64,000 nucleotides of DNA, taken from assembly GCF_045037415.1 (NCBI RefSeq), contig NZ_CP173438.1. One strand, 5' to 3'. Of the stretch, positions 2,582 through 8,816 are shown piece by piece (the first letter of the stretch is position 1; each line of letters begins with the position of its first letter). The translations under genes and the position numbers were made by a program. The DNA is from Escherichia coli (GTDB lineage Bacteria > Pseudomonadota > Gammaproteobacteria > Enterobacterales > Enterobacteriaceae). Below the pieces are notes generated by a model. That model was given only the letters and a program-made list of their open reading frames with translations. It searched no databases and was not told the origin of the DNA.

Positions 2582-2716
2582 ATGGTTCAGTGTGTTCGAC
2601 ATTTTGTCTTACCGCGTCTGAAAAAAGACGCTGGCCTGCCGTTTTTCTTCCCGTTGATCACCCATTCCCAGCCCCTCAATCGAGGGGCTTTTTTTTGCCC
2701 AGGCGTCAGGAGATAA
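2582..2716 (+). CDS. pyrL: pyrBI operon leader peptide
   Basis: Last 44 codons of ORF 2516..2716 (MVQCVRHFVLPRLKKDAGLPFFFPLITHSQPLNRGAFFCPGVRR), ends 4 nt before pyrB. Confidence 0.8.
   Translation: MVQCVRHFVLPRLKKDAGLPFFFPLITHSQPLNRGAFFCPGVRR
2671..2696 (+). terminator. pyrBI attenuator: GC hairpin (gcccctc aatc gaggggc) followed by T8
   Basis: Hairpin plus U-run inside the pyrL coding region, directly upstream of pyrB. Confidence 0.7.
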
Positions 2717-2719
2717 AAG

Positions 2720-3655
2720 ATGGCTAATCCGCTATATCAGAAACATATCATTTCCATAAACGACCTTAGTCGCGATGACCTTAATCTGGTGCTGGCGACA
2801 GCGGCGAAACTGAAAGCAAACCCGCAACCAGAGCTGTTGAAGCACAAAGTCATTGCCAGCTGTTTCTTCGAAGCCTCTACCCGTACCCGCCTCTCTTTCG
2901 AAACATCTATGCACCGCCTGGGTGCCAGCGTGGTGGGCTTCTCCGACAGCGCCAATACATCACTGGGTAAAAAGGGCGAAACGCTGGCCGATACCATTTC
3001 GGTTATCAGCACTTACGTCGATGCGATAGTGATGCGTCATCCGCAGGAAGGTGCGGCGCGCCTGGCCACCGAGTTTTCCGGCAATGTACCGGTACTGAAT
3101 GCCGGTGATGGCTCCAACCAACATCCGACGCAAACCTTGCTGGACTTATTCACTATTCAGGAAACCCAGGGGCGTCTGGACAATCTCCACGTCGCAATGG
3201 TTGGTGACCTGAAATATGGCCGCACCGTTCACTCCCTGACTCAGGCGTTAGCGAAGTTCGACGGCAACCGTTTTTACTTCATCGCGCCGGACGCGCTGGC
3301 AATGCCGCAATACATTCTGGATATGCTCGATGAAAAAGGGATCGCATGGAGTCTGCACAGCTCTATTGAAGAAGTGATGGCGGAAGTAGACATCCTGTAC
3401 ATGACCCGCGTGCAAAAAGAGCGTCTGGACCCGTCCGAGTACGCCAACGTGAAAGCGCAGTTTGTTCTTCGCGCCAGCGATCTCCACAACGCCAAAGCCA
3501 ATATGAAAGTGCTGCATCCGCTGCCGCGTGTTGATGAGATTGCCACCGATGTGGATAAAACGCCACACGCCTGGTACTTCCAGCAGGCAGGCAACGGGAT
3601 TTTCGCTCGCCAGGCGTTACTGGCACTGGTTCTGAATCGCGATCTGGTACTGTAA
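2720..3655 (+). CDS. pyrB: Aspartate carbamoyltransferase catalytic subunit
   Basis: ORF track 311 aa; STRTR and HPLP motifs. Confidence 0.97.
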
Positions 3656-3667
3656 GGGGAAATAGAG

Positions 3668-4129
3668 ATGACACACGATAATAAATTGCAGGTTGAAGCT
3701 ATTAAACGCGGCACGGTAATTGACCATATCCCCGCCCAGATCGGTTTTAAGCTGTTGAGTCTGTTCAAGCTGACCGAAACGGATCAGCGCATCACCATCG
3801 GTCTGAACTTGCCTTCTGGCGAGATGGGCCGCAAAGATCTGATCAAAATCGAAAATACCTTTTTGAGTGAAGATCAGGTAGATCAACTGGCATTGTATGC
3901 GCCGCAAGCCACGGTTAACCGTATCGACAACTATGAAGTGGTGGGTAAATCGCGCCCCAGTCTGCCAGAGCGCATCGACAATGTGCTGGTCTGCCCGAAC
4001 AGCAACTGTATCAGCCATGCCGAACCGGTTTCTTCCAGCTTTGCCGTGCGAAAACGCGCCAATGACATCGCGCTCAAATGCAAATACTGTGAAAAAGAGT
4101 TTTCCCATAATGTGGTGCTGGCCAATTAA
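3668..4129 (+). CDS. pyrI: Aspartate carbamoyltransferase regulatory subunit
   Basis: ORF track 153 aa; C-terminal Cys cluster (CPNSNC...CKYC). Confidence 0.97.
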
Positions 4130-4146
4130 TTGCGGTTGGTAATAAA

Positions 4147-4178
4147 AGTCTGGCTCCCTATAATGAGCCAGACTTTTT
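4147..4178 (+). terminator. Hairpin (agtctggctc / gagccagact) plus T-run after pyrI; loop contains TATAAT, so may double as ridA promoter -10
   Basis: 10-bp inverted repeat followed by ttttt, 18 nt after pyrI stop. Confidence 0.45.
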
Positions 4179-4201
4179 ACCGCTGTAATAAAGGAGAAAT
4201 C

Positions 4202-4588
4202 ATGAGCAAAACTATCGCGACGGAAAATGCACCGGCAGCTATCGGTCCTTACGTACAGGGCGTTGATCTGGGCAATATGATCATCACCTCCGGTCAGATC
4301 CCGGTAAATCCGAAAACGGGTGAAGTACCGGCAGACGTCGCTGCACAGGCACGTCAGTCGCTGGATAACGTAAAAGCGATCGTCGAAGCCGCTGGCCTGA
4401 AAGTGGGCGACATCGTTAAAACCACCGTGTTTGTGAAAGATCTGAACGACTTCGCTACCGTTAATGCTACCTACGAAGCCTTCTTCACCGAACACAACGC
4501 CACCTTCCCGGCACGTTCTTGCGTTGAAGTCGCCCGTCTGCCGAAAGACGTGAAGATTGAGATCGAAGCGATCGCTGTTCGTCGCTAA
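4202..4588 (+). CDS. ridA: Enamine/imine deaminase RidA (YjgF)
   Basis: ORF track frame 4130..4588; start at MSKTIATENAPAAIGPYVQG after AAGGAG; 128 aa. Confidence 0.93.
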   Translation: MSKTIATENAPAAIGPYVQGVDLGNMIITSGQIPVNPKTGEVPADVAAQARQSLDNVKAIVEAAGLKVGDIVKTTVFVKDLNDFATVNATYEAFFTEHNATFPARSCVEVARLPKDVKIEIEAIAVRR

Positions 4589-4644
4589 TCTTGATGGAAA
4601 TCCGGGCTATCATGCCCGGATTAAGTCTGATGACAAACGCAAAA

Positions 4645-4735
4645 TCGCCTGATGCGCTACGCTTATCAGGCCTACGTGATTCCTGCAATTTATTGAATTT
4701 GTTGGCCGGATAAGGCATTTACGCCGCATCCGGCA
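4645..4735. repeat. REP (repetitive extragenic palindrome) units
   Basis: gcctgatgcgctacgcttatcaggcctac and gccggataaggcatttacgccgcatccggc motifs between ridA and mgtA 3' ends. Confidence 0.6.
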
Positions 4736-4793
4736 TGAACAAAGCTTACTTTGTCTGCAATCTGAATCGGGGCTATCGTGCCCAGTTTATTCT

Positions 4794-7490
4794 TTATTGC
4801 CAGCCGTAACGACGGCTATAGAACCCTTTCACCAACTGGGTTAATGTCATATACCCTGCCAGAATCGCAACCAGCCACGGGAAATAGCTTAACGGCAGCG
4901 CCTGTAATTGCAGATAACTGGCCAGCGGTGAAAACGGCAATGCGATCCCGACAATCATCACGATCACGGTCATGATCATTAACGGCCACGATGCACAGCT
5001 CTGAATAAACGGCACACGGCGGGTGCGGATCATATGCACAATCAGCGTTTGCGACAGTAAGCCCACCACAAACCATCCCGACTGGAACAGCGTTTGCGTT
5101 TCCGGCGTGTTGGCATGGAATACCCACCACATCAGGCAAAACGTCAGAATATCGAAGATCGAGCTGATCGGTCCGAAGAAGATCATAAAGCGCCCCAGAT
5201 CCGCCGGGTTCCAACGCTGCGGCTTTTGAATTTGCTCGTCGTCGACGTTATCAAACGGGATCGCCACCTGTGACACATCATACAGCAGGTTCTGAATAAG
5301 CAAGTGTAACGGCAACATCGGCAGGAAGGGCAAGAAAGCACTCGCCACCAGCACGCTGAACACATTACCGAAGTTGGAGCTCGCCGTCATTTTGATGTAT
5401 TTCAGCATGTTGGCGAAAGTGCGACGTCCTTCAATAACCCCCTCTTCCAGCACCATCAGGCTTTTTTCCAGCAGGATGATATCAGCCGCTTCACGGGCAA
5501 TATCTACCGCGCCGTCCACAGAAATGCCGATATCCGCAGCGCGTAAGGCGGGCGCATCATTAATACCATCGCCCATAAAGCCAACCACATGCCCTTCGCG
5601 CTTCAGTAAGGTCACAATGCGTTCTTTATGCATCGGCGTCAGACGAGCAAACAGCGTGGTACGCTGTGCGAGATTTGCCAGTTCGTCGTCAGATAGCGTT
5701 TCAATATCACTACCAATGACCACCTCTCCCGCGTCCAGCCCCACTTCATGGCACACTTTCGCTGCAACTAACTCACTGTCGCCAGTAAGGATTTTTACGG
5801 TAATTCCACTCGCTTTTAATGCCTTCAGTGCCGGAGCAGTTGTCTCTTTCGGCGGATCAAGGAAAGCAATATATCCTTCGAGGATCAGGTCGGATTCATC
5901 CGCCCGCTGGTAATCTCCTTCACGCGCTGGCAGGTATTTCGTCGCCACCGCAACCACGCGCAGCCCCTGACGATTCAGCGTATCAGTAACCCGCTTAATC
6001 TTACGCAGCATGATGTCATCGAGCGGCACAATCTCGCCATTGTGACGCACCTGCGAACACACATTGAGGATTTCCTGCAATGCACCTTTGCAAACCAGCT
6101 GATGGTGCTCGGTATTTTCTGCCACTACCACCGACATCCGGCGACGCTCGAAATCAAACGGAATCTCATCGATTTTTTGCCAACGACTGGCCAGCGAGCG
6201 CGCTGACTCTTCATCCGTACCTTCGAGCACCGCTGTATCGAGCAGGTTTTTAAGTCCGGTCTGATAATGACTGTTCAACCACGCGCTATGCAGCACGCGT
6301 TCGCTGGTTTTACCGGAGATATCGGTATGATTCTCCAGCACAATTTTGTCCTGTGTCAGGGTGCCAGTTTTATCAGTGCACAGAATATCCATTGCGCCAA
6401 AGTTCTGAATAGCATCCAGATGTTTGACGATCACTTTCTGTTTCGACAGCTTTACTGCGCCGCGCGCCAGCGTCGAGGTAACAATCATCGGCAACATTTC
6501 CGGCGTTAAGCCTACCGCGACCGAAAGCGCAAACAGTGCCGCTTCCCACCAGTCGCCTTTGGTGTAACCATTGATTAACAGCACCACCGGAGCCATCACC
6601 AGCATAAAGCGAATCAGCAGCATACTGACGCGGCTGATCCCTTGCTGAAAGGCATTCGGCTCGCTTTCCTGCTCACTAACACGCCCCGCCAGTTGACCAA
6701 ACCAGGTATTGGCACCTGTAGCAATCACCATTGCTTGTGCCGTGCCGCTCACCACGGTGGTGCCCATAAAACACAGGGTGTCGCACTCCAGCGGATTGCT
6801 GTGCTCCGGCTGGCGAGTGGTAGCTGCTTTTTCTACGGGCAGAGACTCACCGGTTAACGACGCCTGAGCGACGAACAGATCCCGCGCCTGCAAGATACGT
6901 AAATCTGCCGGGATCATATCCCCCGCCGCCAGTTTTATAATATCGCCGGGCACCAGCTGGTCGATCGGGATCTCCAGCCAGCCATTTTCGCCTTTGTCGT
7001 TAATTACGCGCAGCACCGTCGCAGTATTGCTGACCATCGCTTTCAGGGCATCTGCCGCTTTAGTGGAACGTGCTTCCTGAATAAAGTTCAGCAACGTAGA
7101 AATAGCGACCATTAGCGCGATAACGCCCGCGGCAAATAAATCTTCCGTGGCGTAAGAAATAGCGCCGAGAATGGTGAGTAAAATATTAAATGGGTTGCGA
7201 TAGCAGACCCATAAATGTACCCACCACGGCGACGGTTGTTGTGCGGGTAATTTATTTTCACCATGTTGTTCGCGGGCAGATTCCACTTCCGCCTGATTTA
7301 ACCCTTCCGGATGGGTGTCGAACGTTTTCCATAATTCTTCTTCGGGCATCACCGCCATTTTCAGGCAATGCGCACTTAAGGACGGCGGGACCGCCGTATT
7401 CACTGTCTGCTGCGCGCCAGGCAATGGATCGCGATGAACCAGACGGGAAGGTAAATGGCGAATGAGCCGGGTAAAAATTTCTTTAAACAT
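4794..7490 (-). CDS. mgtA: Mg2+-importing P-type ATPase
   Basis: ORF track 898 aa; P-type ATPase motifs (DKTGTLT, GDGINDAPAL). Confidence 0.97.
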   Translation of the reverse strand: MFKEIFTRLIRHLPSRLVHRDPLPGAQQTVNTAVPPSLSAHCLKMAVMPEEELWKTFDTHPEGLNQAEVESAREQHGENKLPAQQPSPWWVHLWVCYRNPFNILLTILGAISYATEDLFAAGVIALMVAISTLLNFIQEARSTKAADALKAMVSNTATVLRVINDKGENGWLEIPIDQLVPGDIIKLAAGDMIPADLRILQARDLFVAQASLTGESLPVEKAATTRQPEHSNPLECDTLCFMGTTVVSGTAQAMVIATGANTWFGQLAGRVSEQESEPNAFQQGISRVSMLLIRFMLVMAPVVLLINGYTKGDWWEAALFALSVAVGLTPEMLPMIVTSTLARGAVKLSKQKVIVKHLDAIQNFGAMDILCTDKTGTLTQDKIVLENHTDISGKTSERVLHSAWLNSHYQTGLKNLLDTAVLEGTDEESARSLASRWQKIDEIPFDFERRRMSVVVAENTEHHQLVCKGALQEILNVCSQVRHNGEIVPLDDIMLRKIKRVTDTLNRQGLRVVAVATKYLPAREGDYQRADESDLILEGYIAFLDPPKETTAPALKALKASGITVKILTGDSELVAAKVCHEVGLDAGEVVIGSDIETLSDDELANLAQRTTLFARLTPMHKERIVTLLKREGHVVGFMGDGINDAPALRAADIGISVDGAVDIAREAADIILLEKSLMVLEEGVIEGRRTFANMLKYIKMTASSNFGNVFSVLVASAFLPFLPMLPLHLLIQNLLYDVSQVAIPFDNVDDEQIQKPQRWNPADLGRFMIFFGPISSIFDILTFCLMWWVFHANTPETQTLFQSGWFVVGLLSQTLIVHMIRTRRVPFIQSCASWPLMIMTVIVMIVGIALPFSPLASYLQLQALPLSYFPWLVAILAGYMTLTQLVKGFYSRRYGWQ

Positions 7491-7760
7491 AAGGAGTCCC
7501 TCCGCACTGTCTGAAACAGTACAGAAATGTCTTCAGGCGTGGCGAAGCCTTACCTGAAGGTAATAAAGCTGAGCAGGGACGTTAAAACGTCACGGCCTTA
7601 CGCATCCGGTAACGCCGTGAAAAGACGGGCTTACCGGAAAAGTTTTAATCTCCGTCGAGGGAGAGGCGTGGGATCAGGTTCCATATAACCTCCGGTAAGT
7701 GAAAAAAGCGCCGCAAATAATAAGGAGAATCCAATAATATTCGTAGCATCTATGGCGATA
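7491..7760 (-). promoter_or_regulatory. mgtA 5' leader (Mg2+/proline-sensing leader with mgtL)
   Basis: Long untranslated region between mgtA ATG and PhoP box, containing the proline-rich mgtL leader ORF. Confidence 0.6.
7631..7684 (-). CDS. mgtL: mgtA leader peptide MgtL (17 aa, [17 protein letters not shown])
   Basis: Last 17 codons of ORF 7631..7972; proline-rich leader peptide upstream of mgtA. Confidence 0.7.
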
Positions 7761-7777
7761 TAATACCTGCTGGCAAC

Positions 7778-7794
7778 TAAACCAACGATAAACC
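7778..7794 (-). promoter_or_regulatory. PhoP box (GGTTTA-n5-GGTTTA direct repeat) for mgtA promoter
   Basis: Plus strand reads taaacc aacga taaacc; reverse complement matches the PhoP hexamer repeat. Confidence 0.6.
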
Positions 7795-7868
7795 AGACTT
7801 TACCCATTGCTGAATGCACGGGTAAAGTTAGGCTCAAATAATTAAACAACACGTTACAGGACAACAGG

Positions 7869-8816
7869 ATGCAAAATCGGCTGACCATCAAAGACATCGC
7901 ACGCTTAAGCGGCGTGGGGAAATCTACAGTTTCCCGGGTGCTGAATAACGAAAGCGGCGTGAGCCAGCGCACCCGCGAGCGTGTTGAAGCAGTGATGAAT
8001 CAGCATGGATTTTCCCCTTCCCGCTCTGCGCGCGCTATGCGTGGGCAAAGCGATAAAGTGGTCGCCATCATTGTTACCCGTCTGGATTCGTTGTCAGAAA
8101 ATCTCGCCGTTCAAACCATGCTGCCAGCGTTCTATGAACAAGGTTACGACCCAATCATGATGGAAAGTCAGTTTTCCCCACAATTAGTTGCCGAACATTT
8201 GGGGGTGCTGAAACGGCGTAATATCGACGGCGTAGTGCTGTTCGGTTTTACTGGCATAACAGAAGAAATGTTAGCCCACTGGCAGTCATCGCTGGTTCTG
8301 CTGGCGCGTGACGCAAAAGGCTTTGCTTCGGTCTGTTATGACGACGAAGGGGCAATCAAGATCCTGATGCAACGGCTGTATGACCAGGGGCATCGTAATA
8401 TCAGTTATCTCGGCGTGCCGCATAGTGACGTGACAACCGGTAAGCGACGTCACGAAGCCTACCTGGCGTTCTGCAAAGCGCATAAACTGCATCCCGTTGC
8501 CGCTCTGCCAGGGCTTGCTATGAAGCAAGGCTATGAGAACGTGGCAAAAGTGATTACGCCTGAAACTACTGCGTTACTGTGCGCAACCGACACGCTGGCA
8601 CTTGGCGCAAGTAAATACCTGCAAGAGCAACGCATCGACACCTTGCAACTGGCGAGCGTCGGTAATACACCGTTAATGAAATTCCTCCATCCGGAGATCG
8701 TCACCGTAGATCCCGGTTACGCCGAAGCTGGACGCCAGGCGGCCTGCCAATTGATCGCACAGGTAACCGGGCGCAGCGAACCGCAACAAATCATCATCCC
8801 CGCCACCCTGTCCTGA
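7869..8816 (+). CDS. treR: Trehalose operon repressor (LacI family)
   Basis: ORF track 315 aa; N-terminal LacI-type HTH (TIKDIARLSGVGKSTVSRVLN). Confidence 0.95.
   Translation: MQNRLTIKDIARLSGVGKSTVSRVLNNESGVSQRTRERVEAVMNQHGFSPSRSARAMRGQSDKVVAIIVTRLDSLSENLAVQTMLPAFYEQGYDPIMMESQFSPQLVAEHLGVLKRRNIDGVVLFGFTGITEEMLAHWQSSLVLLARDAKGFASVCYDDEGAIKILMQRLYDQGHRNISYLGVPHSDVTTGKRRHEAYLAFCKAHKLHPVAALPGLAMKQGYENVAKVITPETTALLCATDTLALGASKYLQEQRIDTLQLASVGNTPLMKFLHPEIVTVDPGYAEAGRQAACQLIAQVTGRSEPQQIIIPATLS

Follow-up and report, generated by a model that had tools for sequence, protein, structure and literature searches.

Repetitive extragenic palindromic (REP) sequences and the bacterial interspersed mosaic elements (BIMEs) that contain them have been known since 1984, and Escherichia coli carries hundreds. 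REP sequences have been reviewed as lacking the signatures of MITEs (miniature transposable elements with inverted repeats; Delihas 2011), and the mechanism of their dissemination is described as unknown (Corneloup 2021). Stem-loops of another kind, which lack a U-tract, mark the trimmed 3' ends of transcripts that are ended further downstream by Rho (Dar & Sorek 2018). Here we describe a locus at which the two meet, in a 64,000-nucleotide stretch of E. coli DNA (contig NZ_CP173438.1; hereafter the window) that covers the pyrBI-ridA / mgtA region. Between the convergent genes ridA and mgtA lies a complete BIME-1, and each of its ends abuts one copy of a GC-rich hairpin, h1 on the ridA side and h2 on the mgtA side. 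The explanation we favour, with a probability of roughly 0.78, is that h1 is the original terminator stem-loop and that h2 is a copy of it made when BIME-1 inserted at the hairpin's foot.

The hairpin pair and the BIME-1 between ridA and mgtA

The spacer and its borders are laid out as follows, in window coordinates:

4599-4622, plus strand: h1, AATCCGGGC-TATCAT-GCCCGGATT, read as the A-side copy of the duplicated target from its fold, its conservation and its Citrobacter orthologue
about 4623-4764, plus strand: complete BIME-1 (RIP/RIB/REPIN-type) of about 143 bp, its ends set by comparison with other BIME-1 copies
4622-4646, plus strand: A-like outer arm TAAGTCTGATGACAAACGCAAAATC, the inverted-repeat partner of the B end
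4647-4675, plus strand: Y-type REP, from sequence; the IS621 insertion point in some strains
4676-4704, plus strand: L linker with core CCTGCAATTTATTGAATTTG, from sequence; of the integration host factor (IHF) site type by literature-based assignment
4705-4735, plus strand: Z1-type REP, from sequence; sub-threshold Rfam naRNA4 match
4735-4765, plus strand: B-like outer arm ATGAACAAAGCTTACTTTGTCTGCAATCTGA, which adjoins a Z1 REP at rlmB-rnr and other sites
4765-4788, plus strand: h2, AATCGGGGC-TATCGT-GCCCAGTTT, read from repeat and fold as the degenerate B-side copy, with pairing left in GGGC/GCCC only
4786-4798, plus strand: T-rich tail TTTATTCTTTATT, from sequence, overlapping the mgtA stop codon; a relative (locus L005) has ATGTTTTTTAC here
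4202-4588, plus strand: ridA coding sequence, 128 amino acids, stop TAA at 4586-4588, from translation and the RefSeq annotation of identical DNA
4794-7490, minus strand: mgtA coding sequence, convergent with ridA, its stop codon the complement of 4794-4796

A first-pass annotation of this DNA had proposed that direct repeats bracket the REP pair, and they do: the repeat extends to 25 nt (4599-4623 and 4765-4789), in direct orientation, 166 nt apart and with 84% identity (21/25). The position it gave for the left copy was exact, tccgggctatcatgcccgga being found at 4601-4620, while the right copy, placed at about 4766-4784, proved to be one base away, with tcggggctatcgtgcccag at 4767-4785. The same annotation had both copies folding as a GC stem. 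This describes h1, in which a 9-bp stem (AATCCGGGC/GCCCGGATT) closes the 6-nt loop TATCAT with -20 kcal/mol in context (z = -4.3; 0/200 shuffles equally stable), better than h2, in which only the 4 bp GGGC/GCCC and scattered outer pairs are left (-11.8 kcal/mol, z = -2.2). Its statement that neither copy is followed by a U-run is true of h1, which continues into AUUAAGUCU (TAAGTCTGATG), and only loosely true of h2, which has a T-rich if interrupted tail, AGTTTATTCTTTATTG, running on into the mgtA stop codon. A terminator scan made no call at h1 or h2, and a promoter scan returned one weak minus-strand promoter-like site that we take as noise. Two other ways of relating the copies were rejected. 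An inverted duplication was considered since the stems are palindromic, but the loops agree when both are read directly (5/6) and disagree as reverse complements (0/6); long-range pairing of the 3' arm of h1 with the 5' arm of h2 gave way to the local hairpins in folds of the whole spacer, as RNA and as DNA.

Between the hairpins, 4647-4735 shows the arrangement that defines BIME-1: a Y REP and a Z1 REP in inverted orientation, with the conserved long L linker in the middle. The A-like arm adjoins the Y REP also at yhaH-yqjG, lpdA-yacH, metE-ysgA and katE-chbG, and the B-arm pattern ATGAACAAAGC..ACTTTGTC.GCAATCTGA recurs beside the Z1 REP at rlmB-rnr. Each arm is an imperfect inverted repeat of the other, and we take them to be the motifs A and B of the BIME papers by Gilson from 1991 and Bachellier from 1994. 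When the flanks were searched with BLAST against 5,426 E. coli genomes, the secondary matches of each covered only its inner 25-30 nt, and other BIME-1 copies keep the arms and not the hairpins, so that h1 and h2 stand outside the repeated unit. Both hairpin copies nevertheless directly abut element ends that were defined independently, from those other copies, and the overlap is a single base on each side (T4622 and A4765). By analogy with the literature, the L linker would bind IHF and the element would be mobilised by a REP-associated transposase.

Several further observations concern BIME-1 itself. A second copy lies on the minus strand of the window, at about 33620-33790; its A-like and B-like arms have diverged, and no duplicated hairpin flanks it. 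Sub-threshold Rfam matches at the ridA-mgtA copy, to naRNA4 at 4704-4740 on the plus strand (34 bits against a gathering threshold of 59.5) and to ES036 at 4668-4704 on the minus strand, reflect REP homology only. In some E. coli strains (L001, Res13-Lact-PEA14-20) the insertion sequence IS621, of the IS110 family, lies inside the Y REP of this element, after ...TTATCAGGCCT; in another strain (L213) it adjoins the katE-chbG BIME-1, consistent with its known REP targeting. The mgtA leader contains the expected Mg2+ riboswitch (Rfam RF01056, 125.8 bits, 7584-7699, minus strand), which is unrelated to the hairpins.

Recurrence at other BIME-1 sites and empty sites

Further BIME-1 sites were taken from a scan of metagenome contigs for the L-linker core, de-duplicated, and from six 50-kb chunks of one E. 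coli genome that is identical to the window over the 421-nt query. The core matched at least 120 metagenome stretches, most of them BIME-1 copies; a scan of viral contigs for BIME-1 gave 2 loci. At seven of 16 distinct sites the BIME-1 stands between two copies of a GC hairpin specific to the locus, each in register with the end of the element:

ridA-mgtA: the h1/h2 pair
lpdA-yacH: AGCGGC-N7-GCCGCT, twice
metE-ysgA: CGGGTGG-N5-CCACCCG, twice
katE-chbG: GGCGGCG..GCGCCGC, twice
an unidentified site, L098: a 35-nt repeat of hairpin, T-tract and 12 further nt
rsmS-mscK: a decayed copy
rnpB-yhaC: a decayed copy

When left flanks were aligned with right flanks (Smith-Waterman), four real pairs scored 16-28, among them ridA-mgtA with 17, and thereby beat all 240 mismatched pairs, which reached at most 14 (Mann-Whitney p = 0.0013 over all real against mismatched pairs). 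At the six duplicated sites other than L098 the repeat starts at a constant offset from the REPs (flank positions 27-31), and at four of these six it comprises the whole palindrome, the two decayed sites being less clear. The length of the duplication, 19-24 nt and 35 nt at L098, tracks the size of the palindrome and is not fixed, which suggests a structure-guided reaction. In the clearer cases the A-tract stays with the left copy and the T-tract with the right, as would be expected of an A-tract/hairpin/T-tract terminator that is split with its hairpin duplicated. At L098, on the minus strand (reverse complement, about 2640-3020; gene end ...AIDVL*), the 35 nt consist of the hairpin, T7 and CGCCAAAAGCAA. 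Two candidate regularities were abandoned: that the B-side loop starts with CA, which held at 4/4 sites and then failed at two new ones (4/6), and that of the two copies it is always the A-side one that is conserved, which fails at rsmS-mscK, where the A-side copy has decayed.

At two loci the filled site can be set beside an empty one. At metE-ysgA, K-12 and AR_0086 have one hairpin, AAACCGGGTGG-TAATA-CCACCCGGTCTTTT, and a relative of about 93% identity has two copies around a BIME-1. At lpdA-yacH a single canonical, bidirectional terminator, AAAAAAAGCGGC-GTGGTTA-GCCGCTTTTTT, is found in most E. coli, and 494 genomes have two copies around a BIME-1. The empty lpdA-yacH form is identical in all nine empty contexts that were read, one of them visibly divergent, and is therefore ancestral. 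In both pairs the element and one hairpin copy make up the whole difference between the alleles, and at both (L214/L215/L220 and L104/L211) the A-side loop has a single difference from the empty site. At katE-chbG two unrelated spacers segregate in E. coli (L112 and L216 compared): one allele (about 1,930 genomes) has a REP and a BIME-1 with duplicated hairpin and the other a different, single hairpin, AAGGTCAC..GTGACCTT. This difference is a replacement of the whole spacer and not a simple insertion; the other allele being an unrelated spacer, we rejected the locus as a third filled/empty pair.

Ancestry, divergence and RNA ends of the two copies

The ridA-mgtA spacers were compared across 80 Enterobacteriaceae ridA loci. 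In Citrobacter (L037, L066, L030) ridA is followed by a single AAAAAATCCGGGC-N6-GCCCGGATTTT(T), a canonical terminator with TTTT(T), and Citrobacter R56 (L010) has one hairpin copy in a 69-nt spacer. Many other genera have spacers of 37-96 nt, usually with one (bidirectional) terminator-like hairpin and in some cases with REP-like palindromes. The Escherichia BIME allele alone showed the two-copy arrangement. Its carriers are E. coli and two lineages, L003 and L005, that share 93-94% identity with the window over 6-8 kb; the arrangement is therefore old, and the BIME-1 event predates the split of E. coli from the cryptic Escherichia clades that show this identity here. From these comparisons, h1 is probably the conserved stem-loop of a former ridA intrinsic terminator, likely a bidirectional one, that has lost its U-tract.

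An alternative spacer of about 565 nt stands in place of the BIME allele in E. albertii and in about 8% of E. coli genomes, those without the BIME allele, a figure that may include other forms; it is also scattered in Klebsiella, Citrobacter, Phytobacter and Pseudescherichia (L002, positions 910-1474; L004, L049, L034, L025, L076). Its small open reading frame (ORF) of 151 amino acids is annotated 'transposase'; its only domain is HTH_Tnp_1, at the N-terminus (E = 5.5e-9), and hydrophobic segments come after it. The hairpin in this allele, AATCCAGG...CCTGGATT, is the h1 hairpin with compensatory changes.

The two copies have fared very differently. Variation was scored first in an alignment of nine Escherichia sequences, later in 52 Escherichia loci, metagenome contigs included. 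Across the 52 loci h1 occurs as two variants that differ in the loop only, with 0/18 stem positions polymorphic, as against nine haplotypes and 8/18 polymorphic stem positions for h2; in the 5,426 genomes the left flank is at least 99% identical in 3,348 and the right flank in 2,102. Only in the cryptic-clade relative L005 is h2 intact, as AATCCGGGC-CATCAT-GCCCGGATT followed by ATGTTTTTTAC (ATGTTTTTT), its stem identical to that of h1 at 18/18 positions, and all E. coli proper carry GCCCAGTTT, with which the outer stem can no longer pair. In the window and the K-12 lineage h2 has the loop TATCGT, where other E. coli have CACCAT, a change that inflates the apparent similarity of h1 and h2 here. 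The h1 loop of L003 (strain E69) also reads TATCGT, and judging by these sequences a short gene conversion between the copies may explain the h2 loop of the window (4774-4779). We regard h2 as a decaying relic copy with a remnant of the ancestral U-tract, dispensable in E. coli proper, and h1 as the hairpin that matters at this locus.

Published Term-seq data (Adams et al. 2021, eLife, PMC7815308, supplementary file 1) place RNA ends on this map. MG1655 coordinates (g) were converted to window coordinates (w) as g = 4475115 - w, anchored on the mgtA start, and the reported strings were read as the 3' end preceded by 50 nt of upstream and followed by 10 nt of downstream sequence, a layout verified on a clear T-tract terminator of the same table. 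Two ends lie in the ridA sense:

4624-4625, plus strand: steady-state 3' end of ridA RNA, 2-3 nt past the h1 stem, from Term-seq
4739, plus strand: second stable ridA-sense 3' end, 4 nt past the Z1 REP, from Term-seq

The first (MG1655 4470491/4470490, minus strand) has 188,006, 77,058 and 27,693 reads, one value per growth condition, and the second (4470376), 115 nt further on, 107,037 and 25,527 reads in two conditions, or 57-92% as many, both being steady-state data. No 3' end was called at h2 in the three growth conditions, nor any end in the mgtA sense, mgtA having very low expression in the media used. Supplementary file 2 gives a Rho termination region at 4470082 on the minus strand, antisense in mgtA (score 3.07, p = 5.5e-5). 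A steady-state end directly past a stable U-less stem-loop, as found at h1, is the mark of a protective stem-loop, and the end at the Z1 REP likewise fits. The RNA-stability element suggested in the first-pass annotation suits h1, which acts as a stem-loop of the RNA 3' end or of RNA stability. Its view that the hairpins are unlikely to be simple intrinsic terminators is apt for the present, U-less h1 and misses the past of that hairpin, since the Citrobacter stem is followed by TTTTT. We conclude that h1 sets the ridA 3' end but is leaky, that the REP catches the read-through, and that h2 does nothing detectable in K-12.

Explanations and comparison with known systems

According to the explanation we favour, the BIME-1 of about 143 bp (A arm, Y REP, L, Z1 REP, B arm) would have integrated at the foot of the ridA hairpin with a target-site duplication as long as the whole palindrome, about 22-24 bp. 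The left copy, h1, would have kept its upstream context and lost the U-tract, and would now mainly define and protect the 3' end of ridA mRNA; a large share of ridA transcripts would enter the BIME-1 and gain the second stable end past the Z1 REP, and the remainder would be stopped by Rho within antisense mgtA. The right copy, h2, would have kept the U-rich tail and decayed. That the duplication is linked to the arrival of BIME-1 is probable, and at ridA-mgtA insertion and duplication would have been one event.

A number of observations weigh against this explanation. Nine of the 16 BIME-1 sites are without clear duplication, which means that it is not obligatory or that it erodes. Within Escherichia no empty ridA-mgtA site was found, the sole other allele being the different spacer with the small ORF, and support for a single-copy state at this locus is cross-genus, from the single hairpin of Citrobacter. 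The loops of the two copies differ beyond what simple fill-in predicts: at lpdA-yacH and metE-ysgA the B-side loop departs from the empty site at 3-4 of 5-7 bases, and with this asymmetry simple fill-in is no sufficient explanation. The left junction at L098 falls within the A arm, in the 9-nt microhomology CAAAAGCAA, and suggests template switching for at least some copies. Transposases of the IS200/IS605-type Y1 group make no target duplications according to the literature. As for the RNA, the Rho region lies about 400 nt downstream and is only moderately significant, and h2 may have a role in mgtA mRNA.

As to mechanism, the REP-associated Y1 transposase is reported to recognise hairpins and to cut near their feet, which makes it a natural candidate. 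The reaction we prefer, itself a doubtful one, is that such a hairpin-recognising enzyme might nick both feet of a palindrome that is extruded or single-stranded, and that joining of the element and fill-in would follow.

The best of the competing explanations, though still unlikely, accepts the duplication as real and takes it out of the integration reaction: it could stem from recombination between alleles with a BIME-1 on opposite sides of the hairpin, from replication slippage or template switching that copied BIME-1 into the terminator region, or from a later, selected duplication that gave a hairpin back to the gene deprived of one. The microhomology junction of the 35-nt duplication at L098 speaks for it, as do the variable length (19-35 nt), the differing loops and the fact that Y1 transposases are not known to duplicate targets. 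A constant offset at six sites, with the whole palindrome repeated at four of them, speaks for a single structure-guided process and against a set of accidents, and the two filled/empty pairs leave no residue beyond the element and one hairpin copy.

Slightly less likely again is that h2 is functional and kept by selection, as a weak plus-strand terminator shielding mgtA against antisense read-through or as a stem-loop of the mgtA 3' untranslated region. The inner GGGC/GCCC pairing is indeed kept in 7/9 variants, one variant has the compensatory GGAT/GTCC and another a G.U that pairs only in plus-strand RNA, there is the T-rich tail 3' of h2, and in L005 h2 itself is intact and has U6. Set against these are the 8/18 polymorphic stem positions, the weak fold, an outer stem broken in all E. 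coli proper, the lack of a Term-seq end in three conditions where h1 and the REP have strong ones, and Rho-dependent termination that is detected further downstream.

It is very improbable that the hairpins belong to a short repeat dispersed in the genome, or to the BIME mosaic as one of its motifs, and travel with the element in a shared role at the RNA level. They do flank a BIME and each can fold, and the link to a BIME drawn by the first-pass annotation holds; they are nonetheless locus-specific sequence and not a BIME motif. Its proposed motif search yielded no repeated family, either with the flanks in the 5,426 genomes, where the extra places found by BLAST belong to the A-like and B-like arms and never to the hairpin, or in a direct scan of 364 kb of other E. 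coli DNA of the same strain type, made because BLAST is blind to matches below about 20 nt in 28 Gb. The core motif GGGCTATCRTGCCC occurs exactly twice in the window and was absent from those 364 kb; with up to 2 mismatches the count is not significant by itself (0.7 expected, 15/100 shuffles giving at least 2). An E-value-mode Rfam scan of 3500-8500 gave no match on h1 or h2. The motif is thus found only here, as the annotation had allowed it might be by chance, and the cause is local duplication, not chance. Other BIME-1 copies hold unrelated hairpins (AGCGGC.., CGGGTGG.., GGCGGCG.., GCCCGC..). Least probable of all, two independent terminators alike by chance or convergence, one for each of two convergent genes that, as is common, would each have a hairpin near the stop codon, are contradicted by stem identity of 18/18 in L005 and repeat identity of 21/25 in the window in the same orientation, by a flank score above all 240 controls and by the same pattern at other BIME-1 sites with single-hairpin empty alleles.

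Taken by itself the ridA-mgtA locus is ordinary, a terminator hairpin with a REP element and a relic copy; it gains its value as an example of an insertion footprint that recurs and that touches on a long-standing question. Imperfect inverted arms at the termini, a terminator palindrome in two copies and matching empty sites together provide a testable target and product of the reaction. Such a footprint would explain why REP clusters lie at gene 3' ends, and would offer one route from an intrinsic terminator to a Rho-dependent 3' end with a protective stem-loop. The generalisation that BIME-1 prefers intrinsic-terminator palindromes and duplicates the entire hairpin (19-24 bp), thereby splitting each terminator into one protective stem-loop that lacks the U-tract and one hairpin that has it, and shifting the upstream gene from intrinsic termination towards Rho, is one that we put forward tentatively, as somewhat short of an even chance. 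If that generalisation is true, this would be the first sequence-level footprint of REP/BIME movement. One BIME paper from the 1990s is said to describe 'excisions of a whole BIME-1' in its abstract and may have noted flanking repeats. We found no description of a hairpin-length duplication at BIME-1 ends in the accessible full-text literature, the BIME papers of the 1990s lying outside it. Each part of the arrangement is thus familiar, from terminators, BIME-1/REPINs, target duplications or protective stem-loops, and the duplication at the ends of BIME-1 is apparently undescribed.

The element at 4623-4764, with its Y REP, long L linker, inverted Z1 REP and outer arms, is of the BIME-1/RIP/RIB/REPIN kind; what differs from the described elements is the pair of hairpins, which are outside it and locus-specific. 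With MITEs and insertion sequences the locus shares host direct repeats that abut an element with imperfect terminal inverted repeats; at the empty sites of metE-ysgA and lpdA-yacH the repeat is single. Here, however, the repeat is the whole palindrome, 19-24 bp and 35 at one site, as opposed to a fixed stagger of 2-14 bp, the loops of the copies are not identical, and the presumed enzyme family, Y1 HUH, normally works without duplication. Class C group II introns are reported, in work of Robart and colleagues from 2007, to integrate just after the hairpins of intrinsic terminators. They too are mobile elements that land at terminator stem-loops and so take a harmless place at gene ends; unlike BIME-1, which encodes nothing, they are RNA-guided retroelements, and they are not known to duplicate the hairpin.

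On the RNA side, h1 is homologous to the A-tract/GC stem/T-tract that follows ridA in Citrobacter, and the empty alleles of lpdA-yacH and metE-ysgA are textbook bidirectional terminators. The present hairpins depart from intrinsic terminators in opposite ways: the U-tract of about 7-8 nt 3' of the stem is missing at h1, where the RNA ends 2-3 nt past the stem, and h2 has a U-rich tail but a 4-bp stem. With the protective 3' stem-loops of Rho-dependent transcripts and with REP stabilisers (Dar & Sorek 2018, and Peters et al. 2012 as cited there), the locus shares stable U-less stem-loops, h1 and the Z1 REP, just past which ridA RNA ends, and a Rho region is listed further on; it differs in that the U-less state can here be traced to a BIME-1 that separates the hairpin from its U-tract.

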